Positions 2,284-44,628 of a stretch of DNA of 64,000 nt are shown piece by piece. Source of the stretch: a virus (taxonomy: Duplodnaviria; Caudoviricetes). Both the position numbers and the translations under genes were made by a program. Each line of letters starts with the position of its first letter. Positions within the stretch are counted from its first letter, which is position 1. The stretch lies in IMG/VR virus record IMGVR_UViG_3300020457_000007, positions 23,786-87,785 of that record, one strand, 5' to 3'. The notes below the pieces were generated by a model. That model saw nothing but the letters and a program-made list of their open reading frames with translations. It was not told the DNA's origin and did no database searches.

Positions 2284-2683
2284 CGGTAGTTTCCTCTACT
2301 TTTTTTAACATTTTTGCTAGTTCAGCAGTGCTACCAACAAACATAGTGTTGTTGACAGTAGACGGACCTTTTGATGGCCCTTCTTCTTTGACTTCTTTAG
2401 TCTCTTTTTGTAACTTCATCAACTTGTCAGTTGTATCCGCTACGTTCTTAATCATCAAGGCTGCTACTTCATATGCTCTCGGATGATCCGATGATGCTGC
2501 AACATCAAGAATACCGTTAAGTGCTTCTTGACCTTTATCGATTAGATTATATAGCTGACCACGTGTGTATTCGTAGTCTTGAGTGACATCTTCTTTCACT
2601 TCACGTTGAGGTTTTGCAATAACGTCTACCGTCTCCTCAGGGAGATTTAAGATGTCTTGCATATTATCATCTAGTTTGCTCAT
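2276..2683 (-). CDS. gp16: Terminase small subunit
   Basis: DYEYTRGQLYNLIDKGQEALNGILDVA..SDHPRAYEV and NNTMFVGSTAEL motifs; directly downstream of gp15. Confidence 0.9.
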   Translation of the reverse strand: MSKLDDNMQDILNLPEETVDVIAKPQREVKEDVTQDYEYTRGQLYNLIDKGQEALNGILDVAASSDHPRAYEVAALMIKNVADTTDKLMKLQKETKEVKEEGPSKGPSTVNNTMFVGSTAELAKMLKKVEETTDG

Positions 2684-21800: not shown

Positions 21801-24800
21801 CTTATCACCTAATGGGAAACGCAATCCTTGAGCATTAGAATCCCATTGTATTGAATCTAGATCATCTTCATATTGTGTTCCTTTAGTTGGCTTTCTACCT
21901 GAAGGTATTAGAATAACACCAGTAGCTGCACCAGTATCATCAGTAACTAGAGTATCACCCCAGTTTCTAAGAGATGAACCAGGCATTCCTGAATAGTTAC
22001 GATCTGGTACTAGGTAATCGGAAACATCTAATCCATCGATGAAAGGATAAATCCTAGTATTAGGTTTCATCCTACGTAGATGGAATTGAATATATTGTTC
22101 GGCAACGTATAATGTAATAGCGGTACTGATTGTTTGCTCACCAACAGTAGTTGAAGACTGTTGAAGTGGAACCTCAGTATTCTGTGCAGCAATGTTAGAA
22201 CTACTAGATGTTGTAGCCAGTACAACTTCAGATTCTGGTAGATCAGGTGCATCTGAACTTAGAGAATTAACATTACTAAATTCTGTGCTACTACCTGTAA
22301 CTGCTAATTGAGTTACATTGTGTATTTGAGATAATGCACTATTTCCATCCTCATAGATTTCTAATGGATCTAGAGTTTGGTTGTCATTGTTATTGATAGA
22401 TGGTAAAGCATACTCATCAAACCAAGGATCAACGTTTGGAGTGATCTCTACGGTTCCCTTATAGTTGAATATAAGGAATGGGTTAACAACAGTTGTATTT
22501 GTAGCAAAGATGTTCTGACAGAGAATAGATTCTGTAAATGGAAGAGTTACTACACCGTGATTAACAACATAGTTGGAAAGAGTACGTGCTGTAGATGAAG
22601 CATCTTTTTCTACTAGAGATACAGTAGTTTCATTTGATTCTGGACGTAAAGTACCACGTGTTAGATCTAGTGCTGCTTTATAGTCAACAGAATTAATATG
22701 AGATAATGTATAACTTTCAAAATTATCTACGACAAATCCAGACTTGAATCTATCCATTCCAGTCTGACCGTCTTTAATTTGTGTGTTTAGAGCACCTTGC
22801 TCTAGAACAGATAGCATTGTATAACGCTCAAGACGTTCAACTTTCTTTTCGAGTTTATGGATATCACGCATTGTGAATCTCTTATTCTCTACTGGGAAGA
22901 TCTTGATCTTCTTAAGGTTGTTTGTAAATGCAGGTATGTAAATCTTAAAGACTTTAATAGCCTCATCTAGACTTACTGAAGATTGTGGGTTTGTAGAACC
23001 AGCACCTTTCTTAACTGAGAAAGTACCATCTTTCTTTAGATAGACAGTATCGATGCGATCAACATAATAAGAATAAGCACAACTAAAGGTAAAAGGTGTT
23101 CCAATGCTAGTTTTAGTGTCAGCAGGAAGAGCAGCACTAACACCACCTTGCGTATAAATTTCAGAAACATTTGATCCAGGATCCATTACAGAAGCGTTCA
23201 CATAGCCAGGAATACTAGCTGAGGTTCCGACCAAAGGACGGAAATCAATAACATCAGCAAGACTCTTCTTACCGTGTACTAGAGATGTGACTTGTGGAAT
23301 GTCATCATATATTACACCATTTTCGTGTAGATATGAATCAACTGTAAAGAAGTCTCCTTCGGAGTGTTTGAAGTAATCGAAACCAATTACTAATGTACCA
23401 GTTGGGATTCTGACTCCAGGCTTTCTAATAAGTGTTGATGTGTCATATAGGTTATCCCTTTGACCATCATCAAATAAGAAGAAGTCTGTAATATCTGTAC
23501 CAGTGTTACCTAGAATGTTTCCATTTTCATCAACTGTAGGTGCAATTCCAGGAGTACCCTCATACACATATAGTAGCCTAAAAACGTCAGAGTAAGATTT
23601 AACTTGACCAGTTGGGTTATCATAATCATCACCTCTTATTGGAATAATATCATTATCTAAGTCAGCAGTAATAGAAATTCTCTTACCCTTAGCTGCTGTC
23701 TTTAATTTTGGTTTTGCTTTGGTAGTTTCAATAGTAGTATTGATCTTCAATCTCATACCAGTGAGTTGTAGTCCACCAGATTGCCAGAAATAGTTCTCAG
23801 GAAGTGTAACTGACAATGCACCAGCATTGTTAGAAGATGATCCAGAGGTAACTTCAACCATACTTGAATCTAAGTATAGCAAGTCACCATCTCTTACTAG
23901 ATCACCACTACTATTATTATATCTTACAGTATCAGTACCAGCATTGTATACCTCAATGACATAATCACCTTGGCTAAATGGTACGAACTGCTGCTGACCA
24001 TAATCTAGCTGTGCAGCAATACTAACAGTATTATTTGAACCGTCAATAGTTACGTTCTCAATAAATTGTCTTCTAGAGTAGTATGTAATACCACTATCAT
24101 CATCAGAAGCAACAACTGAGGAAATCTTAGAGTTAGCTAGTGGTAATATAAGTGTTGACTTACCAGAGTTTTCGATCTTTGCTCTAACACGAGTGATAGT
24201 ATTAGATGGGAAACCTGCTATAAGACGTTGTTTGAAATATACTCTGCCTGGTCTATCAGTTGATGGGTTACAAGCTCTAGCAACTTCATACTTATAAGTA
24301 ACACCATCTACAGTGATTTGTACAAGATCATCTTCTGATAACTCATCACCAGGACGTGCTGCATAGTTTGTTGCCTCAGCATAATCAGTATCTGCCTTAC
24401 CAGAATAACCTAAACTATTGGTAATAGTTTTTAGTTCTGTAGAATCTGGTTCACTATACTGAATATCACCAGTAAACTTCTTACTGGTCACACCGTGAAG
24501 CATACCAACAGAACGAATATCTTCTATACCAAAGTTCTGAATAGTATCTGTATAGAGAACAGCTCTAACATATGCATTCTCATCACCAGCACTATGTGTT
24601 CCACCAGTGTCTACAACTTCTAGTTGAGGAGGAACATCAAATGTATCAAGTATCTCTCTTCTTCCTAATTCTGTCAATCTAACATTACGGATGTAATCAG
24701 ATTGTCCATTAATACCATTAGAACCAATATTTCTAACACAAACAATGTAGTTACTTAGATATTGTCTGTCACCAACTTTTAATTCTAGGTTAGCATCAGC

Positions 24801-28974: not shown

Positions 28975-31900
28975 TTATAGATCTAAATCTGCGGTGATTA
29001 TATAGTCACCTGCGACATAGGAGTCAGTGTTGGCATCATTGAACCACATTAATCTGACACCATATTGATCTGATGTCATATTTGTCGAGTCAGCCATATA
29101 GATACGGATTATCGTCGTGGCGGTTTGTGCATTAGCTGGAATATTTTGTGTTATTGTATTCCAACTGGTGTAATTCGCTTGACTGTAGGTCACTACTGAC
29201 CCAATATCAATGAATGTAGTTCCACCATCAATACTGTAACTTAGCATCAAATCGTTAACTGCGGATCCTGGTGCATTACCACCATTACTCCCGTCACCAC
29301 GAATCGCACTAAATGTTACCGTATTGTATGTAGTCAAGTCAGTAGGAGCAAATGTTGCGGATCTAGCTCCACTTACACCTGAGAATAAGAGATAATTTAT
29401 GTTGGAATCAAAAACTGTTCCACCAGATACGACAGATGCACCTACGTTAGTAGTGTTAAAGTCATATGCACTGAATCCTTTTTCAACCACACCTAATGGG
29501 TTGACACGTGTACATCCAACAAAACGATCGGGGAATGCTTGTGTATACGTGATTTTTTCAACCTTAGATTGATCTGCTGCACTTCCGATTATGAAAGCAC
29601 CCCCTGAAGCAGGGAATCCAGCAGTAGAATCAACTAAGATAGTATCAGATCCGTTTGGATTATCCAAAGCGGAATATGTAAGTTTGGTACCGAAATGTAC
29701 CTCAGATCCTTGCATATACACAAAGTTATTTGTGTCACCAGGATCATTAACTTGAGAATTATAAACTTCGGGATTCTCGAAATCTTCAATCGTCAAGTTA
29801 GGATACTTCTCAGACCACCATCCTATATTCATATCTCCCATAATGTATTGTATTGTCCTACCCATACCATCAGTGTAGTAGCCATTGTTATTGGTTGTAC
29901 TCTGTGGTTGAATTTCAAACTTGAAGCTCTGTAGGTAATTCAAATGAGGACCAAGGTTACCAGGACTGAATGTCTCCTTAACACCCTTCATTTGAGGGTT
30001 GGTACCTGCTTGTTTCTCAATAGCACCTGACTGAGCAGTTAGTTTTGTCTCTGTAAACTTGTACTTAGTGACAGCAACTGAGACACCCTGAACACCACCT
30101 GAACATTGTGTATTGGTGACATTAGTCTTAAGATATTGAACTCTTGTTTGTTCAGGTTTAAGTTCAACCAATATTTGTGGTTGACCCTTAGTAGCTAGAT
30201 CTTGTAGATCAATAATCTTCCTGATATGAATTACAGGATCATATGTTCTGTTAAGAAGATATGCACTGCCACCAGCATTACCAAATACTAGAGTGACACC
30301 ATAAGGTACAACTGCTGCCCACTGTGCCCAAGTTGTCTGAGCACCACCCTTCTTGATAACAGAAAGATATGAATGTAATTTTGCAGCTGCATCAATACCA
30401 ACTGGTTCAATACCAAATGTAGTAAGATTCTTGATGTCAAGAGGGTTCTTACGGATAACGAAATAACCTCTAGTAAACAGAATCTGAGGAGGAACCTTAT
30501 AACCAGAACCACCAGAGATAATTTCTGTATCTGCTATTTCACCTCTAACAGCAATAGCATTAGCACGTGCACCACCGCCAGCAGGTGCTCCCACTGGATC
30601 ACCGTTTGAATCAACCTCAGGTTGACTACGGAAAATCATTACGGGTGGTTCACGATAGTTCTTAGATATCTGATCTTGTAGATCTCCAGAGTATATGGAA
30701 GAACTGAAATCATATTCTTGTGAGATGTTATTAGCACTAGCATTTTGTGGAACAAATCCACCTCCCATAAGATCCTTACCCTTATTCAATACGTTGTCCT
30801 GTCTCCAGTTAGCAACATTATCGAAGTAAGTAGAGTTGTCTCTCTTAGAAAGTACGATACTATTAACACCACCTGGTTTGAGGTATTGAAGACCAGTACA
30901 CTCTGTACCAGCTACGTTATTAATATAAACTTTTTCACCAGGACGGAAGTTGGCAGCTACTGGATCAGTATATCCAGAACCATCAAGGTATAGACTGTAT
31001 AATTCTAAAGTCTTTCTAGCTGGGATGTAGTTCTTAACTGTACCTTGCCATACTATGCCAGAGTTAATATCATTCTGATCATTGTACTGACATACGACAT
31101 CGTTAGGTAGGAATTCTACACCAGCTTGTCTACTAGATGTAAGTGAGTGATATCTCAACTCAGCATCAATACGTGCAACTGCCTGTGCACCGTCTCCTTC
31201 AATCTGACCAGAGTAAGCACCAACGTTGATAACAACTTCATACTCATAAGATCTAAAGAATGATCCAACGGTAGTATCACTGTCATAACCAGAGGTTACA
31301 AGTGCTTCTCTAGCAGCACGAATGATAGAACGTGAATCTGCCTCACCATCAATCTGAATAAAGTCACCAGTCTTAAGTGTAGAAGGTATTCTATCTTGTC
31401 TATTAAATAATTTCTCTCTTAAATCAGAGTTAGTAGATTCTTCAACTGCATTAACTGTAACATCAAGTAGAGATGCACTAGCTCCTCTGTCTCTAGTGAG
31501 ACTTAGAGTACCATTTAACCAGTTAACTTTCTGTCCTGTAACACCCTCAACGAATAGAAGGTTTCTAGCACCAGGTGCCCAGTTCTGCTTATAGATTCTA
31601 CCTCTTGCATATGAGTACTCATAGGTATGAGTTCCACCATTAGGATCAGTAGAGATCCAGCAATCTGCACCCTCTAGAGGAAGAACGATTTGCTGATCAA
31701 CAGTTAATCGGAAGAACTTCTTAAATGTACCTTCAGGTTCAATATTAAATCCTAAGAGAACACGCTCTGGATCCAAACCATAGAAGTATAAGATAAAGCA
31801 TTCGGATCCTTCTGAAGGAGCCTCTTGGAATACAATGATATTGTCTTCAATTCTGTATGCTATTCTGTTCTGCTGAATAACACCGTTAAGTATAACCACA

Positions 31901-34900
31901 ACGTTTTGACTTCTCTCTGCATAGAAAGGAACACCACCACGCTCCAATTCAAATATAGTCTGAGCATCATTGAACTGTGCTTCAATGGAGTCCATCTTAT
32001 AGTACTTACCGTGCTTGAATCCAAAGAATTTCTGTTGAACACCAGGAGAGATAATAGCAGTAGCACCAACATTAGCAATAGCTAGTGATGCTTCACTCTG
32101 TATATCTTCACCATTCAAGAATTCCTTCTTAGTCATCTCAACCTGTATACGGTTAGGATTAGGGAAGTCCTGAGTTATCGTCATTAGATAATTCTTCTGA
32201 TTAAACGCAGTCTCTTTAATTGTATTAAGAACAATACTGAATAGTGAGTTAATAGCAGATTCAACCTGTGCACACTGAGGCATTGAATCAACAGTGATTG
32301 TCAAATCTCTATTAGCAGTTAGAGAACTATAAACAATAGGCCATCTCTCTGGAATAGTTCTAGTTACACCAGATTCAAATGTAGTTGGGTTCTGTACAGC
32401 ATTCTCAATTAGACCCACAAATGTATCAACAGCAGATTCAACCTGTGCACATTCGTTAGACTCCTTGGTAATACTAGGATCTTTAATCTGTATTAAACCG
32501 TGTGTTCCAACTGCATTAACTGTGTTGTTACGTATAATGTTAGCAAGAATAGTCTTAAGATGTCCCATTACATTCAACACCTCAGGTACTGAGTGCTGAA
32601 TATGCTCTAGGTATCCATCTCTGTCGATGAATAGATCAGCAGCATCCCAAACCTTGTTGTTACCACCATACTTGAGGTTCCATACAATTGCTTCTAGAAT
32701 ATCCTTAACGTCATCAACACAATCACCAAGTGCATCGTGTGATGATGCTCTAGGATAGGTATGAGTTGTAGCGTGATCATCCATACCACAAGTTAATGTG
32801 ATAGTGTCAGGGAAGAACTTAATTCCTGTATGTCTACCTAATCTATGTGTACCAACGTCCATCATCATATCACCTGTTGCAGGATCATATGTAAGAATAG
32901 ATGGTTCGTAAGGTAATGGTTCAGATTTACCAACGTGTACTGTAATAGTAGTAGCATCTACAGATTTAACTGTAATAGATCTACCATATACAGGATCACC
33001 AACTCTAGGATATGAATGAGGAGTTTCATTCGCATCCATAGCACATCTCATTATAATGCTATTGGCCAGAATAGTAATAGTGTTGGATGTAGTAATAGAG
33101 TGACCACTACCAAGAGTAAGCACCATATCACCAGTGGATGCATCGTACGCAACATCTGTTGGCTTGAATTTCGCACCCGTGTTAACAGTAATAGCATCAT
33201 CTAATGCCCTATCGAAAGTATGAGTGTAACTACCACCTGTAATCAATGATGCCTTCTTAACACTATTAGGAAGAGCACTTTGGAATACGTGGTTAGTAGT
33301 ATTGCTTGATGGTACAGTTGTATTAACTGTTATTTCAAATTGATTTAAAGAAGTATTGCTTATCTGGAACCAACCATCAGATGCCCAGTCTTTCTTATGC
33401 TTAATCGCATTTGAGACTCCTGAGACAAAGGAATGATCAGTAACATTAGTAGAAGGAAGGATGTCTAATACTGTAACATCAAAAGCATTACCAGTAGCAT
33501 TAGAAATCTCTAGCCATCTGTTACTTGGATAGTCTGTATACCTAGGATAAGGATGCTGTGATGAATTAGTATCTTCAAGACAAGTAAATGTCAACGCACC
33601 ATCGTCAAACTTGATCCAATCACCATTGGATAAGTTGTGTGCAACAGTTGTACGTACTGATAGTACACCTGTACTAGGATCATAGGTAGTACCTGTATCA
33701 GCAGTAAACATATCCGTTATTGCTCTAGGATATGCGTGATCATCAGCCTGTCCATTTTCATCACAACGGAATGTGACAGCACCAATATCTAATTTAACCC
33801 AGTCGCCATTACTATATCCGTGATCTGCAATGGTAAGTACCATCTTACCATCATTAGGAGTATAGACAGCATTAGTAGGTGTCTTACCTACCTGTTGTAC
33901 AAACTGATGAGTGCTATCATTAGAAGACTTACCGATATTAGTTACGATAACACCGTCTTGCCTGATAATACCATTAGTGTAAGCAGAAACAAATGTATGA
34001 TCAGTTTCATTACTGGATGGTATAGTTGTTAAGCACTGTATCTCAAATGTATTAGGTGTAACATTTGATACCTCTATCCACTTATCACTAATTGGGTCAG
34101 TAGATCTTGGATATGCGTGATTAGTCTGGTTACCATCTTCATCACAAGTAAATGTGAGTGAATGATCCATCAACTTGATGTAATCACCATCTGTTAGACC
34201 GTGACCATATGTTGTAACACCACTAGAACCAGCACCTTGGAATGTATGAGGGAAGTTATGGCTAATAGTACCTTGACCACCATTTACATTAACTGTAATA
34301 GTTGTAGCATCCTTCTTAAGGACAGGTAACCAAGTGTCATAGGCATAATCAGCACCACTTGTAGTATTAGCACCTACTGCTCTAGGATATGTCTTAGTTT
34401 GTACAACTCCATTATATTCACAACTGAATGATAGTGAATCAGCAGTAAGTTTGATCTTATCGTAGCAAGTTAAACTGTGTGCACCGATAGTCAACTGCAT
34501 ATCACCAGATGCAGGACTATAAGCAGCATCAGTTACAGTAAATTGTTGTGTAGGTACTGTTATTTCTACTACTCCAGTCTCAGGGTTATATCCAGCATTA
34601 GTAGCAGTAAGAGGTGTACCTTCATACTTGATATAAGCAGCATCATCATAATATGGATCAGCAATTATGCCCACTCCAACCTTGATTGGTGTAGCAGAAC
34701 TAACGAATGTATGTGTATAATTACCTCCACTAACAACTGCTCCACCAGTAGCACTAATGAAGGTGTGAGGGTAGTTATGACTGATAGCACCTTGACCACC
34801 ATTAACGTTAATGGTAATTGTAGTTGCATCTGCTGATATAATGTCTAATGCAGTGTCGTATGCATAGTCTTCACCATTAGATGTGTTAGCACCAGAAGCA

Positions 34901-37900
34901 CGAGGGTATGTTCTCTGTGCTACACCACCATTATCACACTCAAACAGCAATGAATCGGTAGTTAACTTGATAGCGGTACCGACTGCTAGACTATGTGAAC
35001 CAATTGTCAATACCATCTCACCTGTAACAGGATCATATGTAGCATTTGATACATTATGATTGACTAGAGGTGTAGTACCAACATTAACAGTAATGGTATT
35101 AGAAGTAGTTGCTGTGATAGAAAGATTCTTACCACTAACAGGATCTGTTGCTCTTGGATATTGCTTAGGTGAACCATTACCATCCATTGCACAGTTGAAA
35201 GTCAAGGCCCCATCAGGGATCTGGACTAACTCACCTGTAGTGAATGAATGAGGTCCAATATTCATTTCTAATAGACCGTCAGCTGGTGTGTAAGTTGCAT
35301 CAGTTACACTACGCAAGTTACCAGTAGCCATTCTTGCTACTGATTCCTCAGCAACGAAAGTCTTATTATCTTTTATTAGTTTTGCAGCATCAATGAATGT
35401 ATTTGCTACAGGGTTGTCAATATTGTAAGGATCTGCATATACACCTATAGAATTAGCTAATGCACTCTTGAATGTATGAGCATAGTTACCACCAGAGATG
35501 ATAGAATCAGCAGCAGCAGTTACAAACTTATGAGTATATGCACCACCACTAATAACTGCACCAGGAAGTGCATCAACAAATGTATGAGGTGTAACGTTAG
35601 TAGAAGGTGCTACATTAAGGATATTAATAGTAATGGATGTATTAGTTACTGACTTAATATTGATTGCTGTATCATAGAATGGATCCACCTTCTGTTTGAT
35701 ACCATCAGCTGTAGCAGAAACAAATACGTGTGTATCAGTATTGGTAGAAGGAATTGCATCAAGAACAGTTACTACGAATGTATCAGTTGTAACATTTGAT
35801 ACCTTTAACCATCTATCGTTAGGATAATCTCCTGTTCTAGGATATGTTTTTGCTTGACCATTACTTCCAACACCAACATTAACTGTAATTGTTGTAGCAT
35901 CAACAGAATCAATAGCTATCGCTGTGTTGTATACAGGGTCAGTTGTACGTGGGTATGTGTGGACAGTTGCGTGACTGTCTGCATCACAAGTGAATGAAAG
36001 TGAATTAGCAGCAATAGTAATAGTGTCGCTAGTTGTTAGAGAATGATTTCCTATTGTAAGAATCATTACTCCTGTACCGAAGTTATAGTCTGCTCCAATA
36101 ACATTGAAGTTGCTTCCACCAGAGGAAACAGCATCGATAGCAGTACCACCAACGTAGGTATGAGTACCAGCACCATATGTGCAAGTTAATGTAAGTGAAT
36201 TATCTTCAAACTTAATCCAATCACCATCTGCCATATTATGTGCAGATGTTGTTGTAACAAGCATCTCACCATTTACAGGATTATATGAAGTTCCAGTAGT
36301 AGCAGTATGACTATAGGTATCTGGTCTAGGATATGACTTATTACCAGAACCGTGAGTACAACTAAAGATTAAAGAGCTGTCTCGTAACTTAATACTTGTA
36401 TTTGCTGCTAGTGTATGATTACCAATAGTCAACTCCATATCACCTGTAACAGGATCATAGGCAGCATCCGACACATCGTGAGTAACTAAAGGTGTTTGTC
36501 CAACCTGTAGTGTAATCTTACCTTTCTCAAGTTCAATACCATCAGTAAGAGCACTTACAAATGTATGAGTATCAAGGTTAGAAGAAGGAAGAGTGTCTAA
36601 GCACTGTATATCAAATGTATTTGTAGTTACATTAGAGATAGGAATAAACTTACCACTGATAGGATCAGAAGAACGTGGATATGCAGAACCAGGAGAACTT
36701 ACGCCAACATTAACTGTAATAGTACCACTACCTTGATCTACTGCTTTAATAGCAATTGGTAGATTGTATGCTGGATCTGTTGCTCTAGGATAAGAATGGT
36801 CAGTTGCAAAGTTGTCTTCGTCACATCTGAATACTAATGAACCACCAGCTATAGTAACTGTATCTACAATAGTAAGAGTATGAGTACCAATAGTTAATGA
36901 TAAGTCACCGTTAGATGGATTATAAGAAGCATTAGTAACATTAAATGATGCACCACCTGTGACAGTTACAGCATTGGTTGCAGTACCACCAACATAATTG
37001 TGAACTCCACCACCATAGGTACAACTAAAGGTTAAAGCACCGTCAGCAAGTTTAACATTGTCACCAGCTTCAAATCCGTGGTCTGTAACCTGAATTGTAA
37101 CAATACCTGTTGTAGGATTATAGCTAGCGGTCTCTGCTGTATGGAATGTGGATCCAGTACTTACAATATTAAATGCTTTGTCGTAGAAAGGATCAGTTGT
37201 TCTTGGATAAGTCTTAACTGAGTCTCTATGATCCATCTCACACTTGAATGAGAGGGAGTTAGGAGCAATCTTAACAGCAGTATTAGGAGAAAGATTATGA
37301 GAACCAATATCAAGTGTCATAAGACCCGTTGTTGGATCATATGAACCGTCTGTTGGTGTATGTGTGATATTAGATGTTGTACCTACGTTAACAGTGACTG
37401 TATCATCTGTTACTTGAGTAATATCAAGGGTTGATCTGTATGCAGGATCTCCTTGTCTTGGATATGTCTTATCGGATGTCTGTCCATCCATATCACAACT
37501 CCAAGTCATCGAGTTATCAGCAATCGCTATGAAGTCTGCTGTAGTAAGCTCGTGATTTGGTATTGTTAGTACTAGTGTACCACTAGTAGCAGAGTAAGTA
37601 GCATCTGTAGGTTGCAATCTGAAGTCAGATGCAGCTGCTCTCTGGAAATCATATAGATTGTCTATACCAAACTTATTACGTACTGCAAGGATAACCATAT
37701 CCTTCAAATACTTCATAGACCATAGAGTTGCCTCTACTTCACCTTCAATATGCTTAATACCACTATTAGGATCTGAAGGATCTAAAAGATACTCTTTAGC
37801 AGCATCAAATGTATTACTGTTACCACCTTGAATAAGGTCATCTGCCATTGCTCTCAAGACAGACTTAAGGTCAACAATACACTGATTTCTTCCTAGACCT

Positions 37901-40900
37901 GGATATTGGAAATACTCAGGTGCAAATTTACTTGTATTGTCTAATATGAATACTGCTTCCTCTGCTAGTACAGCAGCGTTGTTATCGATGATATTTGCAG
38001 CATCTAGGAATCTATTATCTGAGAAATACCTCTTAGCTACGATTTCACCTCTAGCACCAGAAGTTTGTCCAACAACATAGTCATTTACTAGCCAGTTGGT
38101 TGCATCACCAATTTCAAGTTCTACAATCTTACCAACCTGTCTAGGTGGTTCTGTAAAGGTTATTTTACCATTTCCAGGATTAGTTGTTAAAGTAAAGGCA
38201 ACATCGGGTTCCTGGATAACACCATCTAAAGAAACGTATAAATGGTCTCCATCTACAATAGGAATGCCTAAATCGAATTCTGTAGTAGTACCATCGAATA
38301 GAGAAGTGATATTGTTCGCTTCTCGCATATATTCGGCATTATTCGCATCATCTTGGAATTTCATCGACTTTCCGTAGAAAGTCACGCCTGGTACAAATAT
38401 ACCAGTACTAGGATCAGTATATGGTCCTAATGGTGCAGAAGCGAATGTAATGGTAGATCCAGCAACTGTATACGCAGTATCAGGATCCTGAAGAACACCG
38501 TCCAATGTAACGACTAATTGAGTTGCTCTGAACGGAACAAGCACCTCATTGATATCTTTCTTGAATAATGTAAATTGAGTCGTACCAGTGATTGTACCAT
38601 CTGCTTGAACAGCACCATCGAAGGCTGGTGAGATTGCTAGGTCAAATACTTCAATTTCAACGTTATTCTGTTCACTATAGTTAATAGTTCCTGTACCACG
38701 TTGTTTCGACATAGAATCGACTCTAACGTGAGATTGAGTGATTCTTCTCGACTTATGAGCACAAGTAACACCTAAAACGCCAGGTTCGATGATACTCATC
38801 ACCGCACCGTATCCATTGTCCTTTGTGCCACTTTGAGGAGTGTCTATGGTCTCTGGTTGTGTTCCATCACCTTGAGACTCAATTAAGACTTCTCCAAAGA
38901 GGTTAAATCCAGCTGGATGGGTAAAACGCTTAACAAAGTCTCTCCAGTCGTTAATAGAGACTGTAGACTTAACTACGTAAGAATAATCTTGATAATAGAC
39001 TCCATCTTGGACTTTCTGTGAAACAGCACTTAATTTACTTCTATCACTCGAATATGAACCAACTGAAGTACTTGTAGGTCCAATTTGCGGAGTTATGTTA
39101 GCTACGTAGATAACTTGGATACTTGCAGTAGCACGAAGTGTCTCACCGTAGATTTGATACCTAGAATCGAATTTTCCGTAGATACCCTTCAAACGAAGAA
39201 TATTCATTCCATCAACCCAGTAATCAACTCTACCAGAAGCAATCATATCTCCAGCTAAGTTTCTTTGCGTTATTAGCTCTCCATTCAAGAATGCCTTGTC
39301 GGGCATATCTCTTAGAGTCATAACAATGGGTGGATTGACTTGAGGTGCTAAAGTTGGGTCATTATTGAAGTCTTTACCCGAAGATATGATTTCTAGGGTT
39401 GCCAACTTACCAATATCAGTTCCTTGAGCAAATAACTTAGTATCTGACTCATAAAGTCGTAAAGTAGTCGTATCTGCGTAATTAACTCCTTCATCAATCG
39501 GAATAATACGAGAAACCGATCCGTCTGCCCTTAATTCGATTGTAAACTTAGCATTTGCTCCATCACCCCTATTTTCAAGCAATACAATGGGTTTAGAGTA
39601 ATTTAATCCAGTATCTGTAACTGTAACTGATGTAATACGTCCTTCAGTAAGATTAACAGTAAATGCACCTCTAAAACGCTTGTTTAAGAAGACACCAGGC
39701 ACTTGAGGTGGCATCGTATAGTTTTTACCACCACTGATGACTTTAACCCTCTTAATCGCTCCTACAGCGTATAGAGAGTCGGTATAATATTGAACATTCG
39801 TAAATCCTTCATTTTGAGGAGTCTGCTTTAACCTATAAGCAAATTCGTACTCATAGCCATAGAATACAGCGTGCTTACCTGCAAATGGGTCTTCTACAAG
39901 AGTAAAGAACTGATCTTCAGCATCTATCTTCGCAGATACCTCTCCATAGTAAATTTTGGTAGGAATGTCTAGTACAGGTGTACTCTTCCAAGTAGTACCG
40001 TCTACTGGTATACCATATCCAAGTTGGAACGTACTAAATGACCCAGTATTACCAGGTTTTACAGTTGACTGGTACGCTTGTACTAGTTCAGTAGTTCTAT
40101 AGACGTTTTCGTAGAATTTAAGATTTCTATTGACTAATGATGGATCAGAAGTATCAAAAAGATAACGATAAGTCTTTTGACACTCAATACTGATATTTCT
40201 ATTCCATTCTGTCTGTCCATCCTTCCTAAATCTAAATCTTAAGGAAGTAGGTTCGACACTTGCTATAGAAACCTGTTTATTAGGTGTACTACCATCTAAG
40301 AAGGTGGAATTAGTGTCAATTGTTGTGTCTCCTTCATTTAAGTAATAAACAATTAACTTATGAGTCTCAGAATCATATGAATCAATCCAAGCATTGTTTC
40401 CACTGAATGATACATTGGAATCCTTAGTGAATCTGTAAATATTTGTTATAAGTGTGACATCAACACCTTCAATATGATCTTCTGCTTCAGTTCCATTAAC
40501 ACCACGTATAACAGTTAGGAAATTACCTGTAACATTAGTGATCTGACACTCTTCATCAGTGATTCTAATAATATCATCTCTAGAGTAGCCAGAACCACTG
40601 GTTACTGTTATGATGGTATCAGTTTTGGCACAACCAGCAGCATCTACAAAGAATGTAGCCTCTTGACTATTGACATTACCACCTAGAAGACTAGATTGTA
40701 TAGTTACTATATTACCATACTCGTATCCATCTCCTTTAGTAATGATCTGAGCACTAACAACGTGTCCACCAGCATCAGTAGTAACAGTAAGGGTTCCAGC
40801 AGATCCTGTACCAGATTGATTGGTAACATTAAGTCCATTAAAGGTTGTACTAGGAGTAAATCCACTACCAGCATTGATAATGCTAACTCTAGCTATCCCA

Positions 40901-43900
40901 GATCCATTGATCTGACTGACTTTTGAAGGTTCGTTTAATTGTACAGTATGATACTTCTTAGTCTCAACATAATACTTCTGAGTAGAGATAGTAGAATCAG
41001 GTTGAACTGTAACAATGACATCATCACCGACTGCTAAACCGTGTCTGACGTTATCTGTCTTTAAAACTGCAATATTGTCTTCAACTTCTAGAAGTTTAAA
41101 TCCTTTAGATAGAGATCTAACGTTAACGATGGTTGCAGCACTAGTATTGACTTGACAACCATTACCAACTGCAAAGAATCCCAATTCAGCGTATGATGTG
41201 CTTGGTATAGTAACTGTATTACCATCATCGTCTACTGTAGTGAGTTTATTGGGGTTAGCAACCTGTAATTCGACAATAACAGTATTCTTGTCTACAACAT
41301 TACGTAAAACCTTACCAATAGCTACTTCGTGTGCTACACCACCAGATTGTTCAGTGAATACGACATTATCACCAACTGCTGCTAATACAGTGTTATCAAA
41401 GGTGATATTGTAAATCTCAGTTGTAGAATCAACTGTATCAGTAAGATTGAATGTACCTGTAACATTTTTTACAACAAACTGTGATGTCTCTTCAATTAGA
41501 CCAATTACGGTAGCTATAGCACCAGTATTGTTCTGAGTTAGTGAAGAATTGTGATTTAAGTAAACATTCCTGTCACAAGTGAAATAATTGTTCTTTGGAG
41601 TGTTACAAGACAAAGATGCAACTTGCTGACCTTGAATTTGGTCTACAGCAGCAAATAATCCATCTCCATTGTCATTAATGGAATTATCAACATATAGAAC
41701 GTCTTCATTCGTGAAATTGAAGGAAGACTGATGAACTTCGATATCTGTGATCGGTCCATACTCAATTCCGCTAACTCTAGACGTTAAGAGCTCTCCAGTG
41801 TCTGCTGTAGCGTTTACAGTTCTTCTACGGACTCCATCTGGCAAATATTTTTGTTTAGACTTAGTTTTCCAGTTTTCTTCAACAGGAACATTGTAAAATG
41901 CCTCTCCGATCGAATATGGGAACGTAGGAGACTCACTATCGTCTGTAGTTAAGAAATAAGCGTATACACCGTTTGGAAATTCGGGTGTAGTGCAAAAACG
42001 ACCATTATTAGCATCTAGTGTTCCTAATCTTTCGATAAACTCGAAATCATTAGTAAAACGACCTAATGAGTAAGTATTTGTGTCTGGAGCATTAGATCCT
42101 CTTGATGCTTTAAGTCTCCAGCTGGATTCCATCCTTTTAATAGTAGGATTCGCAGCAGTAACATCTTGATATGGATCTTCATAGCCAAAACTACCATATA
42201 TCGGATTTCCGTCATACGCCCAACCTAATATTGGAGAATGACTGTTATTAGAGAGTGGGTTACCCTGACCATCAACATTATCCTGTCTTAAAATCTTTAA
42301 AGAGGTAGGAGCAATGATATGACCATATGAATAACCATAATTAGGGTCATTTGCAATTTCTACGATACCACCAGCATTACCATTGTCAACAGACATCTCT
42401 AAGTACCTGTTATACTGCCATCTAGTCAAAACAGCAGTTGCTGAAGCAGTTCTAGACTTAGGTACTAGTGTAATAGTTGTAGAACCTTCCTCATAGTCAA
42501 ATCCACCAGATTGTTGAGTGAATCCAGTGATCTTACCTGTTACAGTGTCTATTTGGCAAGTATAGAACGCACCTTTACCTTTTCCACTCGCATCGTAGAT
42601 AAAAACATCAGGTGGTTCCGTGTAATCGGTTCCAGCGTCTATAACTTCAGCATTTTGGTTTACAGAGAGATAAATGTTCGCAATTTGACCTTGCTGAATC
42701 AAAACAGTAAATTCTCCACCAGTTCCAGAGGTAAATTCAACTGTAGGAGCAGTTGTGTATCCAGAACCTTGATTTGTGACGTTTACAGCTATGACTTCTC
42801 CAATTCCATTAATCTGTGCTTCTGCTGTGGCATTTCCTTCAACAATAACCTTTGGAGGTACGCTATAATTCCTTCCTCTGTCTGTAATCTCGATTTTTTC
42901 GAGTAAACCGAAATCTAGACCTCTTGATGACTTGTAATTGTATAATGGAACTCCATTAACCATTACACCAACCTCTTCTGAGGTTGTTAATTCTTTTGTG
43001 CTTGCATTTACTGGTTCTCTAGGAAGAATCTTTAAATGCTCTTGATCTTCAGGTACTTTTATGTTGTCAAATGGTCCTATAGCATAAGATGGGAATCCAG
43101 AAGACGCAATATAGTAATTATCAGTATCTCTATAGATTGCAGAGACATCTGAAAGAATTTTATCCTTAATATTGTTAGTTCCTACGTTACTAGGGTCAGA
43201 ACCTGATAACTTACTAAAGTTTTGATTGACAATCCACTCATTTGACAATGGAAGGTCATCTTGGAATCCAGATGCCTTAAATTCAACCATATTGTTGAAT
43301 GAGACATAAGGAATACCACCACTAGCTACATCAAAGTAGTTGTCTGCGGTTTCATCGTACTCTAGACCAGAACTTGCCTCTGGTTCGATACCTTCAGAGG
43401 TTAATCCTGATACAAGACCATAGATACGAAGTTCTATTTCATTACGGACTCCATTTTCAGTATAAAAACCTGAAAGGTTGTTTTTTGTAAATGCTCTTAC
43501 ACCTTTCTCGTGGTTATAGAGTTGTTTGTTGTCAGAATTGACTGCATCCCTCTCTTTGATGATAAATTGAGTCGCAGTCTTACTACTATATGTAATTTCT
43601 TCAGTACCAATGACTACACGACCATCTTTCTCTGGAAATCCAATAGTAGAGAACACATCGATGCGATCTCCAAGACCTGCATTGGTAGAAATGTCATTCA
43701 TTAAGAATGTACGACGTGCAATAGCAAATACACCCTCTTTACTACCAGGTGAGATAGTTAAAGTGTACTGTAGACTACCTTGATAAGGTTCACCGACTAT
43801 ATTGTCGATAATAGCAGTCGCAGCAGTCAGTTCGGGGTTATATGGATCAGGAGATTGAATAACCTCATTACCAACGATCTTTCTAATGTCTCCAGATATA

Positions 43901-44628
43901 ACTTCACATACTAATAGCTCTTTATTGTTCCATCCAGACTCAGATGCCTTATAAACATTCTCTTTTGGATAGATGATGTCAGGTTTGACACTAAACAGCA
44001 TCTGGAAGATGAACTCCAGTGACTGTGGTGTACCTTTGACGTTATAGAAGTCCTTTATCCTCTTAACTAAGAGGTTCTTGTTTGTTGTGTCTCTAAGATA
44101 AGGATATGGGAAACCGCTAGTATACTGTTCTTCGTAATTCTTGATTAAAGCAGCCAGTAGAAGGTTGCTTAGGTTGTTGACAACTGCAAACTGCTTATGA
44201 ACAGCAGCAACTGACTCTACAAAGTTGATTGGTTCGTATAAGTCACCAACTTTGGTCTTTGCACTATAGCCACGGACACAATTAGTGAATTGTGTGTCTG
44301 TTTTAGATTCATACAGGAAGATTTCCTGATCAATCATTATCATCCCGTTACTATCAGGGAATCCATCAGTCGAATCGACTGTAATATGAATATTATCAGT
44401 ACCTAGAGGTATTTCTATATCTAAACTTGCTGTCTTAACAAGAATCTCAGGTGAGAATGTATCTACATCAAGATATCTCTCGAAATTGTTAAGAATATCC
44501 TGTGGTCCTTCACTTATTGATAATGCTTCATAATATTTGGACAGGAAATTCGTAACGAGGGGATAATCCTCGACAACAAAATCAGGTAACTGACTTTCAA
44601 TCAGTGCTGCTAGACTTGGACCTGCCAT
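28975..44628 (-). CDS. gp7: Giant baseplate wedge initiator (5217 aa) with large repeat insertions
   Basis: IESQLPDFV.EDYP...FL..YYE, IKDFY..KGT..S..F.F..LF, HSPILGWAYDGNPIYG, QD..YYQDYSYVVKS...W...V....HPAGF; lies between gp6 and gp8. Confidence 0.88.
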   Translation of the reverse strand: MAGPSLAALIESQLPDFVVEDYPLVTNFLSKYYEALSISEGPQDILNNFERYLDVDTFSPEILVKTASLDIEIPLGTDNIHITVDSTDGFPDSNGMIMIDQEIFLYESKTDTQFTNCVRGYSAKTKVGDLYEPINFVESVAAVHKQFAVVNNLSNLLLAALIKNYEEQYTSGFPYPYLRDTTNKNLLVKRIKDFYNVKGTPQSLEFIFQMLFSVKPDIIYPKENVYKASESGWNNKELLVCEVISGDIRKIVGNEVIQSPDPYNPELTAATAIIDNIVGEPYQGSLQYTLTISPGSKEGVFAIARRTFLMNDISTNAGLGDRIDVFSTIGFPEKDGRVVIGTEEITYSSKTATQFIIKERDAVNSDNKQLYNHEKGVRAFTKNNLSGFYTENGVRNEIELRIYGLVSGLTSEGIEPEASSGLEYDETADNYFDVASGGIPYVSFNNMVEFKASGFQDDLPLSNEWIVNQNFSKLSGSDPSNVGTNNIKDKILSDVSAIYRDTDNYYIASSGFPSYAIGPFDNIKVPEDQEHLKILPREPVNASTKELTTSEEVGVMVNGVPLYNYKSSRGLDFGLLEKIEITDRGRNYSVPPKVIVEGNATAEAQINGIGEVIAVNVTNQGSGYTTAPTVEFTSGTGGEFTVLIQQGQIANIYLSVNQNAEVIDAGTDYTEPPDVFIYDASGKGKGAFYTCQIDTVTGKITGFTQQSGGFDYEEGSTTITLVPKSRTASATAVLTRWQYNRYLEMSVDNGNAGGIVEIANDPNYGYSYGHIIAPTSLKILRQDNVDGQGNPLSNNSHSPILGWAYDGNPIYGSFGYEDPYQDVTAANPTIKRMESSWRLKASRGSNAPDTNTYSLGRFTNDFEFIERLGTLDANNGRFCTTPEFPNGVYAYFLTTDDSESPTFPYSIGEAFYNVPVEENWKTKSKQKYLPDGVRRRTVNATADTGELLTSRVSGIEYGPITDIEVHQSSFNFTNEDVLYVDNSINDNGDGLFAAVDQIQGQQVASLSCNTPKNNYFTCDRNVYLNHNSSLTQNNTGAIATVIGLIEETSQFVVKNVTGTFNLTDTVDSTTEIYNITFDNTVLAAVGDNVVFTEQSGGVAHEVAIGKVLRNVVDKNTVIVELQVANPNKLTTVDDDGNTVTIPSTSYAELGFFAVGNGCQVNTSAATIVNVRSLSKGFKLLEVEDNIAVLKTDNVRHGLAVGDDVIVTVQPDSTISTQKYYVETKKYHTVQLNEPSKVSQINGSGIARVSIINAGSGFTPSTTFNGLNVTNQSGTGSAGTLTVTTDAGGHVVSAQIITKGDGYEYGNIVTIQSSLLGGNVNSQEATFFVDAAGCAKTDTIITVTSGSGYSRDDIIRITDEECQITNVTGNFLTVIRGVNGTEAEDHIEGVDVTLITNIYRFTKDSNVSFSGNNAWIDSYDSETHKLIVYYLNEGDTTIDTNSTFLDGSTPNKQVSIASVEPTSLRFRFRKDGQTEWNRNISIECQKTYRYLFDTSDPSLVNRNLKFYENVYRTTELVQAYQSTVKPGNTGSFSTFQLGYGIPVDGTTWKSTPVLDIPTKIYYGEVSAKIDAEDQFFTLVEDPFAGKHAVFYGYEYEFAYRLKQTPQNEGFTNVQYYTDSLYAVGAIKRVKVISGGKNYTMPPQVPGVFLNKRFRGAFTVNLTEGRITSVTVTDTGLNYSKPIVLLENRGDGANAKFTIELRADGSVSRIIPIDEGVNYADTTTLRLYESDTKLFAQGTDIGKLATLEIISSGKDFNNDPTLAPQVNPPIVMTLRDMPDKAFLNGELITQRNLAGDMIASGRVDYWVDGMNILRLKGIYGKFDSRYQIYGETLRATASIQVIYVANITPQIGPTSTSVGSYSSDRSKLSAVSQKVQDGVYYQDYSYVVKSTVSINDWRDFVKRFTHPAGFNLFGEVLIESQGDGTQPETIDTPQSGTKDNGYGAVMSIIEPGVLGVTCAHKSRRITQSHVRVDSMSKQRGTGTINYSEQNNVEIEVFDLAISPAFDGAVQADGTITGTTQFTLFKKDINEVLVPFRATQLVVTLDGVLQDPDTAYTVAGSTITFASAPLGPYTDPSTGIFVPGVTFYGKSMKFQDDANNAEYMREANNITSLFDGTTTEFDLGIPIVDGDHLYVSLDGVIQEPDVAFTLTTNPGNGKITFTEPPRQVGKIVELEIGDATNWLVNDYVVGQTSGARGEIVAKRYFSDNRFLDAANIIDNNAAVLAEEAVFILDNTSKFAPEYFQYPGLGRNQCIVDLKSVLRAMADDLIQGGNSNTFDAAKEYLLDPSDPNSGIKHIEGEVEATLWSMKYLKDMVILAVRNKFGIDNLYDFQRAAASDFRLQPTDATYSATSGTLVLTIPNHELTTADFIAIADNSMTWSCDMDGQTSDKTYPRQGDPAYRSTLDITQVTDDTVTVNVGTTSNITHTPTDGSYDPTTGLMTLDIGSHNLSPNTAVKIAPNSLSFKCEMDHRDSVKTYPRTTDPFYDKAFNIVSTGSTFHTAETASYNPTTGIVTIQVTDHGFEAGDNVKLADGALTFSCTYGGGVHNYVGGTATNAVTVTGGASFNVTNASYNPSNGDLSLTIGTHTLTIVDTVTIAGGSLVFRCDEDNFATDHSYPRATDPAYNLPIAIKAVDQGSGTITVNVGVSSPGSAYPRSSDPISGKFIPISNVTTNTFDIQCLDTLPSSNLDTHTFVSALTDGIELEKGKITLQVGQTPLVTHDVSDAAYDPVTGDMELTIGNHTLAANTSIKLRDSSLIFSCTHGSGNKSYPRPDTYSHTATTGTSYNPVNGEMLVTTTSAHNMADGDWIKFEDNSLTLTCTYGAGTHTYVGGTAIDAVSSGGSNFNVIGADYNFGTGVMILTIGNHSLTTSDTITIAANSLSFTCDADSHATVHTYPRTTDPVYNTAIAIDSVDATTITVNVGVGSNGQAKTYPRTGDYPNDRWLKVSNVTTDTFVVTVLDAIPSTNTDTHVFVSATADGIKQKVDPFYDTAINIKSVTNTSITINILNVAPSTNVTPHTFVDALPGAVISGGAYTHKFVTAAADSIISGGNYAHTFKSALANSIGVYADPYNIDNPVANTFIDAAKLIKDNKTFVAEESVARMATGNLRSVTDATYTPADGLLEMNIGPHSFTTGELVQIPDGALTFNCAMDGNGSPKQYPRATDPVSGKNLSITATTSNTITVNVGTTPLVNHNVSNATYDPVTGEMVLTIGSHSLAVGTAIKLTTDSLLFECDNGGVAQRTYPRASGANTSNGEDYAYDTALDIISADATTITINVNGGQGAISHNYPHTFISATGGAVVSGGNYTHTFVSSATPIKVGVGIIADPYYDDAAYIKYEGTPLTATNAGYNPETGVVEITVPTQQFTVTDAAYSPASGDMQLTIGAHSLTCYDKIKLTADSLSFSCEYNGVVQTKTYPRAVGANTTSGADYAYDTWLPVLKKDATTITVNVNGGQGTISHNFPHTFQGAGSSGVTTYGHGLTDGDYIKLMDHSLTFTCDEDGNQTNHAYPRSTDPISDKWIEVSNVTPNTFEIQCLTTIPSSNETDHTFVSAYTNGIIRQDGVIVTNIGKSSNDSTHQFVQQVGKTPTNAVYTPNDGKMVLTIADHGYSNGDWVKLDIGAVTFRCDENGQADDHAYPRAITDMFTADTGTTYDPSTGVLSVRTTVAHNLSNGDWIKFDDGALTFTCLEDTNSSQHPYPRYTDYPSNRWLEISNATGNAFDVTVLDILPSTNVTDHSFVSGVSNAIKHKKDWASDGWFQISNTSLNQFEITVNTTVPSSNTTNHVFQSALPNSVKKASLITGGSYTHTFDRALDDAITVNTGAKFKPTDVAYDASTGDMVLTLGSGHSITTSNTITILANSIIMRCAMDANETPHSYPRVGDPVYGRSITVKSVDATTITVHVGKSEPLPYEPSILTYDPATGDMMMDVGTHRLGRHTGIKFFPDTITLTCGMDDHATTHTYPRASSHDALGDCVDDVKDILEAIVWNLKYGGNNKVWDAADLFIDRDGYLEHIQHSVPEVLNVMGHLKTILANIIRNNTVNAVGTHGLIQIKDPSITKESNECAQVESAVDTFVGLIENAVQNPTTFESGVTRTIPERWPIVYSSLTANRDLTITVDSMPQCAQVESAINSLFSIVLNTIKETAFNQKNYLMTITQDFPNPNRIQVEMTKKEFLNGEDIQSEASLAIANVGATAIISPGVQQKFFGFKHGKYYKMDSIEAQFNDAQTIFELERGGVPFYAERSQNVVVILNGVIQQNRIAYRIEDNIIVFQEAPSEGSECFILYFYGLDPERVLLGFNIEPEGTFKKFFRLTVDQQIVLPLEGADCWISTDPNGGTHTYEYSYARGRIYKQNWAPGARNLLFVEGVTGQKVNWLNGTLSLTRDRGASASLLDVTVNAVEESTNSDLREKLFNRQDRIPSTLKTGDFIQIDGEADSRSIIRAAREALVTSGYDSDTTVGSFFRSYEYEVVINVGAYSGQIEGDGAQAVARIDAELRYHSLTSSRQAGVEFLPNDVVCQYNDQNDINSGIVWQGTVKNYIPARKTLELYSLYLDGSGYTDPVAANFRPGEKVYINNVAGTECTGLQYLKPGGVNSIVLSKRDNSTYFDNVANWRQDNVLNKGKDLMGGGFVPQNASANNISQEYDFSSSIYSGDLQDQISKNYREPPVMIFRSQPEVDSNGDPVGAPAGGGARANAIAVRGEIADTEIISGGSGYKVPPQILFTRGYFVIRKNPLDIKNLTTFGIEPVGIDAAAKLHSYLSVIKKGGAQTTWAQWAAVVPYGVTLVFGNAGGSAYLLNRTYDPVIHIRKIIDLQDLATKGQPQILVELKPEQTRVQYLKTNVTNTQCSGGVQGVSVAVTKYKFTETKLTAQSGAIEKQAGTNPQMKGVKETFSPGNLGPHLNYLQSFKFEIQPQSTTNNNGYYTDGMGRTIQYIMGDMNIGWWSEKYPNLTIEDFENPEVYNSQVNDPGDTNNFVYMQGSEVHFGTKLTYSALDNPNGSDTILVDSTAGFPASGGAFIIGSAADQSKVEKITYTQAFPDRFVGCTRVNPLGVVEKGFSAYDFNTTNVGASVVSGGTVFDSNINYLLFSGVSGARSATFAPTDLTTYNTVTFSAIRGDGSNGGNAPGSAVNDLMLSYSIDGGTTFIDIGSVVTYSQANYTSWNTITQNIPANAQTATTIIRIYMADSTNMTSDQYGVRLMWFNDANTDSYVAGDYIITADLDL
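32735..37620 (-). repeat. 15 degenerate ~100-aa beta repeats within gp7
   Basis: 15 YPR motifs counted; consensus TDA.Y.P.TG.M.LTIG.H.L....IK....SL.F.C..D.....YPR..DP....I..V...TITVNVG...HTFVSA. Confidence 0.9.

Follow-up and report, generated by a model that had tools for sequence, protein, structure and literature searches.

A giant gp7-like baseplate protein in a cyanophage fragment

The stretch of DNA analyzed here, referred to as the window, covers 64,000 nucleotides (positions 23,786 to 87,785) of the IMG/VR virus record IMGVR_UViG_3300020457_000007, an 87.8-kb metagenomic fragment of a viral genome that is 46%-complete. The window contains an open reading frame (ORF) on the minus strand, at 28975..44628, which is open across 15.6 kb and encodes a gp7-like giant baseplate wedge protein of 5217 amino acids (aa), here called gp7. 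All features described below are encoded on the minus strand; nucleotide positions refer to the window and aa positions to gp7. The N-terminus of the protein (aa 11 to 225) matched the Pfam family Baseplate_wedge PF23786, marginally above the cut-off (27.7 bits vs 27), and the protein also matched phrog_2885 (E 1.6e-210) and phrog_4406. The ORF located upstream matched phrog_219, a gp6-like baseplate wedge protein (E 4e-200), and the ORF located downstream matched phrog_438, which is gp8-like (E 2e-167). The gp6-gp7-gp8 order in the window is the same as the order annotated in Prochlorococcus phage P-SSM2.

In a Pfam search run on gp7 as 3 pieces, no family was identified on aa 2001 to 4500, and a megablast search with the region gave no match among phage records. 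A tblastn search recovered 319 phage records, every one of which was from a Synechococcus, Prochlorococcus or marine cyanophage, with identities of at most 38.5%. One of these matches was the annotated gp7 of P-SSM2, which is 5195 aa long.

The central part of gp7 contains 15 copies of an all-β unit

We identified 15 copies of an all-β unit of about 95 aa in gp7, here called U1 to U15. The signature of the unit consists of a YxPxxG hairpin, HxL, LxFxC, YPR-xx-DP, TITVNVG, and an HxF strand. The YxPxxG hairpin, LxFxC, YPR, and the closing HxF strand were each present exactly 15 times in aa 2331 to 3970 after the removal of named false positives, in agreement with the 15 β repeats counted in a first-pass annotation made from the sequence without database searches. 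Matches to the pattern H.[FY] numbered 27 within aa 2341 to 3963 vs 3 in the remainder of gp7.

The paralogous units were 25% to 63% identical in protein sequence and 61% to 71% identical in DNA sequence. The values for U9 and U11 were 63% and 71%, respectively. The His of HxL, the Cys of LxFxC, the YPR motif, and the Asp were invariant in the alignment of U1 to U15, and together with the closing His strand they could form a metal or structural site in each unit. With a profile of the unit, 702 cluster representatives were identified (E ≤0.001) in a set of 1.84 billion proteins. In a search of the ESM Atlas with U9, unnamed clusters were obtained at 0.91 and the nearest named cluster was E1_FCCH at 0.87, which we regard as a lead only.

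The β units are inserted into one another

A hidden Markov model (HMM) of 77 positions, extending from TDATYDP to TITVNV, was made from the gp7 copies themselves. It gave 20 matches in gp7, of which 9 were near-full (F), 6 were N-terminal partial matches (N or n), and 5 were C-terminal partial matches (C or c). The matches followed in the order F F N F C N N F C C in a first block and F F n F c N F C F N in a second block, and the HMM coordinates of the partial matches were complementary. This bears out the suggestion in the first-pass annotation that the repeats are not simply tandem (aa 2167 to 4197), and that they are interrupted by whole other repeats before they resume.

The first block starts with the core of U1 (37357..37608, aa 2341-2424; HMM 1-77, E 1.6e-32), which is without its closing His strand and is followed by the N-part of U2 with strand D1 (37135..37356, aa 2425-2498; HMM 1-71). 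The N-part of U3 (37009..37134, aa 2499-2540; HMM 3-54) breaks after LTFSC, in the sequence LTFSCTYGG (aa 2532), and gives way to the whole unit U4 (36709..37008, aa 2541-2640; HMM 1-77, E 2.5e-31), which has its His strand first and ends near TITVNVGVSS (aa 2636). U3 is then picked up at ..AYPR and continues to HTFVSA (aa 2688) in its C-part (36550..36708, aa 2641-2693; HMM 48-76), after which U2 resumes with strands D2 and E1 (36472..36549, aa 2694-2719), where KITLQVG corresponds to the TITVNVG element. The strings cited in the first-pass annotation as an example of a unit within a unit belong to U3 and U4, and every string that it quoted was located where it had been placed.

Downstream of these, the N-part of U5 (36295..36471, aa 2720-2778; HMM 1-53) ends in YPR, and the N-part of U6 (36163..36294, aa 2779-2822; HMM 1-54) ends after the Cys. 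The whole unit U7 follows, again with its His strand first (35869..36162, aa 2823-2920; HMM 2-77, E 4e-33). The first of the 2 subsequent C-pieces (35710..35868, aa 2921-2973; HMM 41-77) has its own YPR and was assigned to U6, while the second (35566..35709, aa 2974-3021; HMM 42-77) begins at DP, extends to HTFVDA, and was assigned to U5. Because the break points of U5 and U6 complement each other in this way, the order is nested and a crossed order is excluded. The modules U3[U4] (36544-37134) and U6[U7] (35704-36303) were 54% identical as whole modules, which argues that nests have been duplicated as nests.

The first block ends with 3 stacked His strands, HTFVDA (aa 3015, nt 35586), HKFVTA (aa 3033, nt 35532), and HTFKSA (aa 3051, nt 35478), which the first-pass annotation had matched to 3 previously opened units. 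This match is direct for HTFVDA, which is contiguous with the C-piece of U5. HTFKSA, which together with SIGVYADPY forms the putative tail of U1 (35425..35511, aa 3040-3068), was assigned to U1 by paralogy, since the last stacked strand and its tail (aa 3040-3075) were 48% to 52% identical to the tail of U8, U1 was 43% identical to U8, and the core and tail of U8 are contiguous in the related contigs L003 and L007. HKFVTA (35512..35565, aa 3022-3039) was given to U2 by elimination.

In the second block, the core of U8 (35050..35304, aa 3109-3193; HMM 1-77) is separated from its tail with the closing strand HTFVSS (34660..34749, aa 3294-3323) by the whole unit U9, which was matched by the unit HMM and is placed before the His strand of U8 (34750..35049, aa 3194-3293). 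The first hairpin of U10 (34534..34593, aa 3346-3365; HMM 1-25) is separated from the remainder of U10 (33982..34230, aa 3467-3549; HMM 10-76) by the whole unit U11 (34231..34533, aa 3366-3466; HMM 1-77, E 7.6e-34). Likewise, the N-part of U12, which ends after YPR (33697..33867, aa 3588-3644; HMM 1-57), is separated from its C-part (33259..33417, aa 3738-3790; HMM 43-77) by the whole unit U13 (33418..33696, aa 3645-3737; HMM 1-77). The block continues with U14, which has its His strand first (32914..33246, aa 3795-3905; HMM 1-77), and ends with the N-half of U15 (32740..32913, aa 3906-3963; HMM 4-60), which runs straight into a helical domain and whose best paralogue is the N-part of U2. The His strand at aa 3803 was considered as the closing strand of the orphan unit; this was rejected and the strand was kept in U14, given its resemblance to the strands with which U4 and U7 begin and its confident modelling beside U14.

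Taken together, only 3 units (U9, U11, and U13) are uninterrupted and in canonical order, another 3 (U4, U7, and U14) are contiguous with the His strand first, that is, circularly permuted, and 9 units are broken by other whole units, at 5 loops. Two of the insertion sites, after the first hairpin (in U10) and inside the D1/D2 hairpin (in U2), were additional to those listed in the first-pass annotation. Domains that are broken by a whole copy of themselves and then resume are represented by the strings N F C, n F c, and N N F C C, and in U5[U6[U7]] the inserted unit is itself a host, which gives at least 2 levels of nesting of the unit within itself.

Two split helical domains and an outer FDG-type domain enclose the units

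The 2 blocks of β units are flanked by pieces of 2 helical domains, H1 and H2, to which a helical HMM matched at aa 2205-2321 (positions 1-108), aa 3076-3101 (positions 1-26), and aa 3953-4063 (positions 24-120). The first piece, with helices a to d of H1 (37639..38016, aa 2205-2330), covers HMM positions 1-108 only and thus represents H1 without its last helix; helix e, CAQVESAINSLF.., follows at aa 4107-4140 (32209..32310) and is 38% identical to helix e of H2. The second piece contains only helix a of H2 (35314..35403, aa 3076-3105), which is 50% identical to helix a of H1, and the third contains helices b to e of H2 (32374..32772, aa 3953-4085; E 3e-31). H1 is therefore split before its last helix, and the gap holds H2, which is in turn interrupted after its first helix.

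The first-pass annotation had described a helical domain that opens twice and closes twice, and we located its opening strings RFLDAANII at aa 2206 and TFIDAAKLI at aa 3077 and its closing string CAQVESA at aa 4060 and aa 4119. The associated DNA repeat is real and consists of 24 nucleotides, 23/24 of which are identical, at 32251-32274 and 32428-32451, including an exact 21-mer. The double split is upheld by the complementary HMM pieces and by the relatives, in that the complete a-e helical domain is contiguous in L016 and P0065, and P0108 contains 3 tandem helical copies, each of which covers helices b to e. In the frame-1 ORF of L016 (aa 1480-1700), the contiguous helical domain was observed inside a β domain (..LVNLDVG [150 aa] ..YGFKKGD..) that is unbroken in L015 (aa 2170-2240) and in P-SSM2 gp7 (L017), which represents a further domain insertion in the family.

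A profile of the helical domain (alignment A5, 10 phage domains) was compared with the PDB, and the best 60 sequences were all phycobiliproteins. The best match was to residues 38 to 102 of phycocyanin alpha (E 6.8e-6), with an alignment that covers about half, the first half, of the domain. A Cys and an Asp 3 positions after it were invariant in 10/10 rows of A5 and were aligned to the KCARD motif of phycocyanin alpha, which we take to hold the bilin-attachment cysteine (Cys84). The corresponding C..D..GGN motif was present in 62/78 of the domains that cover this helix. H1 of the window itself scored below the gathering cut-off of the Pfam family PF00502 (14.8 bits vs 22.2; E 0.029), whereas the relative P0174 exceeded it (31 bits). 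A second conserved Cys opens the last helix, in CAQVESA. From the sequence, pigment binding and a disulfide are both candidate roles for these cysteines.

H1 is in turn preceded by the N-part of the second FDG-type β domain (38113..38304, aa 2109-2172), which ends in ..ITFTEPPRQVG, with TEPPRQVG at aa 2165-2172. The strand QKFFGFKHGK (32008..32037, aa 4198-4207) is found 2025 aa after this N-part, directly ahead of the next FDG domain. In homologues with tandem FDG-type domains (P0073, P0047, P0090, and L019), TEAPxxG runs directly into F[FYV]G[FY]xxGK, after which the next domain starts. We therefore identify KFFGFKHG (aa 4200) as the probable closing strand of the outer domain, as the first-pass annotation had proposed when it placed the whole block inside one such domain. 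The segment KIVELEIG (aa 2173-2180) was a weaker alternative for the last FDG strand and was passed over in favor of KFFGFKHG on the basis of the homologue alignment. Two small β segments, one before H1 (38017..38112, aa 2173-2204) and one after H1 (32038..32151, aa 4160-4197), may represent the N-half and the C-half of another split small domain.

Whole units have been gained or lost among relatives

To compare the nesting order among gp7 relatives, as the first-pass annotation had suggested, we examined 7 related IMG/VR contigs with identities of 80% to 94%. The string of the first block was kept in 7/7 contigs, while the loop before the His strand of U8 differed by whole units. In 4/7 contigs (L003, L004, L006, and L007), there was no counterpart of U9 and the sequence was contiguous, ..NVG(8 aa)HTFVSA, as in the unbroken loop ..ITVNVGVATSGQYDHTFVSAATPIKVGVG.. 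of L003. One whole unit (U9) was present in this loop in L002 and in the window, and in L001 and L005 U9 held a further unit with its His strand first, between its Cys and its YPR. By direct comparison, the 3 states thus document the gain or loss of whole units at the predicted loops, and they show that a unit, once inserted, can turn into a host.

A search with alignment A1 added only 2 distant loci. Nesting was also seen in other lineages, with matches in the order C N F n F F c n N F c c n F c in P-SSM2 gp7, F n F n F c F N F C F c c in Syn30, F F F n F F F F F c in AG-345-P14, and N F n F F c n F c in L015. We used a stack parse to pair openings with closings across 128 proteins and ORFs (120 metagenome proteins, gp7, and the loci). 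For the 132 pairs obtained, the HMM coordinate at the end of the opening piece was correlated with that at the start of the closing piece (r 0.77, vs a maximum of 0.29 in 2000 shuffles). Among the 35 relatives of at least 2000 aa, 10 had at least 1 matched pair (21 pairs, r 0.88) and 13 had unmatched partial matches only. Type-II N-halves were paired with type-II C-halves in 7/7 cases (Fisher p 0.011), which is a weak test as the sequences are related.

Structure prediction

Two AlphaFold2 jobs were run with alignments of orthologues and metagenome relatives (36 and 38 rows), and the results were read as confidence values (predicted local distance difference test, pLDDT) and secondary structure. 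Model 1 (aa 2341-3068) had a mean pLDDT of 66.2 and a predicted template modelling score (pTM) of 0.33, and model 2 (aa 3070-4090) had a mean pLDDT of 68.6 and a pTM of 0.32.

In model 1, U1, U2, both pieces of U3, and U4 were mostly modelled at pLDDT 65-93, with values of 76-93 for the core of U1, 65-88 and 69-90 for the N-part and C-part of U3, and 60-90 for U4. The pattern of 8 strands expected for a whole unit was seen in U3, divided 4+4 between its pieces, with block means of 65-90 for both. Two unusually long strands of U2, at model residues 145-156 in the N-part and 358-368 in the resumption (pLDDT 79-87), flank the U3[U4] insert and are read, from the model, as a two-stranded stalk. 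The core of U7 was also good (62-89).

In model 2, block means were at 74-92 for nearly all β units, apart from a small number of lower blocks; the values were 74-90 for the core of U8 and 67-92 for U14. U10 showed the strand pattern of a whole unit, split 2+6 (pLDDT 84-85 for the hairpin and 69-88 for the remainder), and U12 showed it split 5+3, with block means of 58-86, mostly 74-86, and of 58-86 in the C-part. The closing strand of U8 after U9 was modelled as a strand (56-60). Several split units were thus folded confidently, and the predictions agree with the nests where they are confident, that is, for U2[U3[U4]], U10[U11], and U12[U13], while for the stacked closures and the helical nest they give no evidence in either direction. 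A complex prediction for the core and the tail of U1 scored 0.28 vs a mark of 0.32, and is evidence neither way. When the 2 models were compared with the PDB by Foldseek, no credible relative emerged (TM score ≤0.11), in a comparison of whole chains that has little power for a single small domain.

A probable domain tree and its alternatives

We consider it likely that aa ~2109 to 4207 of this cyanomyovirus gp7-like baseplate protein represent one domain tree that was built by repeated insertion of domains into domains, a rare mode of protein construction of which gp7 would be an extreme example. The β units would hang from the 2 phycobiliprotein-like helical domains, and H1 would in turn sit ahead of the last strand of the FDG-type domain. 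Distant pieces would pack into one fold in cis, with the second and third stacked strands closing U2 and U1, respectively. The deepest path would lead from the FDG domain, through the small β module if this is counted, to H1, U1, U2, U5, U6, and U7, which gives 7 or 8 levels. This depth holds if the closures have been correctly assigned; without U1 and U2 as hosts, it would be 5 or 6 levels. The first-pass annotation had also suggested a branched appendage on the baseplate, built by recursive insertion. Recursive insertion is supported at the sequence and comparative level, and from the synteny of gp6, gp7, and gp8, the tree would probably decorate the outside of the baseplate wedge as a branched structure for host contact, the branches of which may change rapidly in number through the gain or loss of whole units.

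Several observations weigh against a tree of this kind. The bracket grammar is not strict, in that the N-half of U15 is not followed by a C-half, and 2 C-like pieces flank U10[U11] with no N-half ahead of them. These are a D1-like piece, DPYYDDAAYIKYEG (34594..34659, aa 3324-3345), which resembles D1 of U2, and a piece resembling D2 and the His strand in the C-part of U2 (33868..33981, aa 3550-3587). The HMM match of the C-part of U12 was weak (E 0.015). In the structure predictions, contact between distant halves is inferred from confidence values and secondary structure, and the first-pass proposal that the discontinuous halves fold together met with a mixed outcome. The stacked strands (model 1 residues 682-728) had pLDDT values of 29-37 and no strand (~30 for the tail of U1), the N-part of U6 was below 50, and the C-parts of U5 and U6 were at 30-56, with U5 and the C-pieces overall at 30-62. 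In model 2, both pieces of H2 were below 50, and the pieces that lack a partner were low, with values below 50 for the orphan C-pieces and 50-67 for the N-half of U15. In the stack parse, 55 closings and 82 openings were unmatched, and many of the proteins are fragments. Of the openings in the 35 long relatives, 36/57 were unmatched, 16 of which were in P0252 (4057 aa), and 12/35 of these relatives were purely tandem, such as P0201 (4764 aa) with 24 F units. The 16 N-only matches in P0252 imply that an N match may also be a unit with a divergent C-half, and suggest a subfamily of such units. Considered with the tandem relatives, they indicate that nesting is customary in one part of the family and is not required by the fold.

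The tandem relatives, P0252, and the stacked strands and halves left unfolded by AlphaFold2 are what would be expected of a plain tandem array, in which the partial matches are decayed or truncated repeats, the additional His strands are spare linkers, and the distant pieces never pair. We regard this as very unlikely for gp7, since the pieces matched by brackets have complementary break points, the signature elements occur exactly 15 times each, relatives are contiguous where the units in the window are split, and the split pieces of U3, U10, and U12 were confidently modelled although they are only 20 to 60 aa each. The misfits may also be explained by domain swapping in trans between gp7 copies in the baseplate, at least for the N-half of U15, the orphan C-pieces, and the stacked strands, all of which fall outside the cis brackets or were left with low confidence or without strand structure in the monomer models. 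Baseplate wedges of T4 contain several copies of gp7, which would make such exchange feasible. The nested order and the short linkers of the well-modelled nests are nevertheless better suited to folding in cis. Moreover, the orphan pieces mimic the C-part of U2, with an insert at the same hairpin, and the N-half of U15 is closest to the N-part of U2; together with the 15-fold count of parts, this suggests a single U2-like unit in cis that has been circularly permuted and opened at the YPR|DP loop, and swapping in trans is in our view unlikely.

The record is a metagenomic fragment and the region is repetitive, which raises the question of whether an assembler scrambled a repeat array. We consider the likelihood of this negligible: the same order was observed in 7 independent contigs, analogous nests are present in the isolate genomes of P-SSM2 and Syn30, the paralogues are too divergent in protein and DNA sequence to confuse an assembler, and the frame is open throughout the 15.6 kb.

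Comparison with known systems

The closest precedent for the domain tree in gp7 is the Si3 insertion of cyanobacterial RpoC2. Passages of one report describe its sandwich-barrel hybrid motif (SBHM) domains SBHM-2 to -5 as discontinuous domains that are assembled from distant parts of the chain (PMC10895346), and passages of a second report from 2026 describe 8 domains and a six-level recursive insertion, the deepest among 48,551 insertion events surveyed (PMC13114784). In both proteins, copies of one small β domain are inserted in loops of other copies, and several domains are discontinuous. The gp7 unit differs in being an uncatalogued domain with no Pfam match, and in a Foldseek comparison with Si3 (8emb_A) it was not recognizable as a sandwich-barrel hybrid motif, with chance-level values (E 0.09, probability 0.02, TM 0.05) for a whole-chain query. 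Furthermore, the host of the insertions is a virion baseplate protein in gp7 and an enzyme in Si3, and the gp7 nest is a mixture of 3 kinds of domain, namely the β units, an FDG-type domain, and helical domains that resemble phycobiliproteins. The depth would be 7 or 8 levels in gp7, compared to 6 in Si3, if the closing strands are correctly assigned, and the insertion states of gp7 vary among relatives that are 80% to 94% identical.

The P-SSM2 gp7 protein has a similar N-terminal Baseplate_wedge domain, gp6-like and gp8-like neighbours, and the same unit, which is also nested. It differs from the protein in the window in that the identity is at most 38.5% in the block, the helical HMM had no match, and the block is located in another host domain. 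The gp7 protein of T4 is about 5 times shorter. The helical domain of the gp7 family resembles phycobiliproteins in its profile and in the invariant C..D at the position of KCARD, and differs from them in that it is located inside a virion protein and serves as host for insertions, that only its first half aligns with solved chains, and that a second conserved Cys opens its last helix.

Many cyanomyoviruses encode genes for bilin synthesis and lyases. It is conceivable, but a long shot, that the helical hubs are genuine phycobiliprotein folds captured from a host that have kept the bilin Cys and Asp and are perhaps loaded with bilin via phage genes; the tree on the baseplate would in that case be an organ of host recognition that contains pigment and possibly responds to light, with branches gained and lost by insertion of whole domains. 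The PebS and CpeT families were not found in the record of the window, which as a 46%-complete fragment is uninformative in this respect. With or without a pigment, the tree in gp7 would, if true, surpass in depth every domain nest so far described in a protein, and a virion protein may thus grow by recursive insertion of domains into domains beyond the reported six-level extreme, to a depth of 7 or 8 that is partly inferred. The natural relatives catch this process at 0, 1, and 2 levels in a single loop, and a phycobiliprotein-like domain would act as a scaffold in cyanophage baseplates. A search of full-text literature, with subscription journals and supplements outside its range, identified no paper on nested or phycobiliprotein-like domains in phage particles. 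The analysis also defines an uncatalogued β unit, and the discontinuous domains that it forms defeat linear domain annotation and matter for the modelling of host recognition by cyanophages.

Other features of gp7 and its surroundings

Outside the nested region, a YHYH domain (Pfam PF14240, E 1.4e-29) was identified in the N-terminal third of gp7 (aa 792-896, 41941-42255), and a domain similar to Reelin subrepeat B (Pfam PF21471, E 2.2e-11) was identified at the C-terminus (aa 5077-5190, 29059-29400). Two more giant ORFs are located downstream of the gene for the gp8-like protein, at 18834-27092 (2752 aa) and at 5885-11263 (1792 aa), both of which presumably encode virion proteins.

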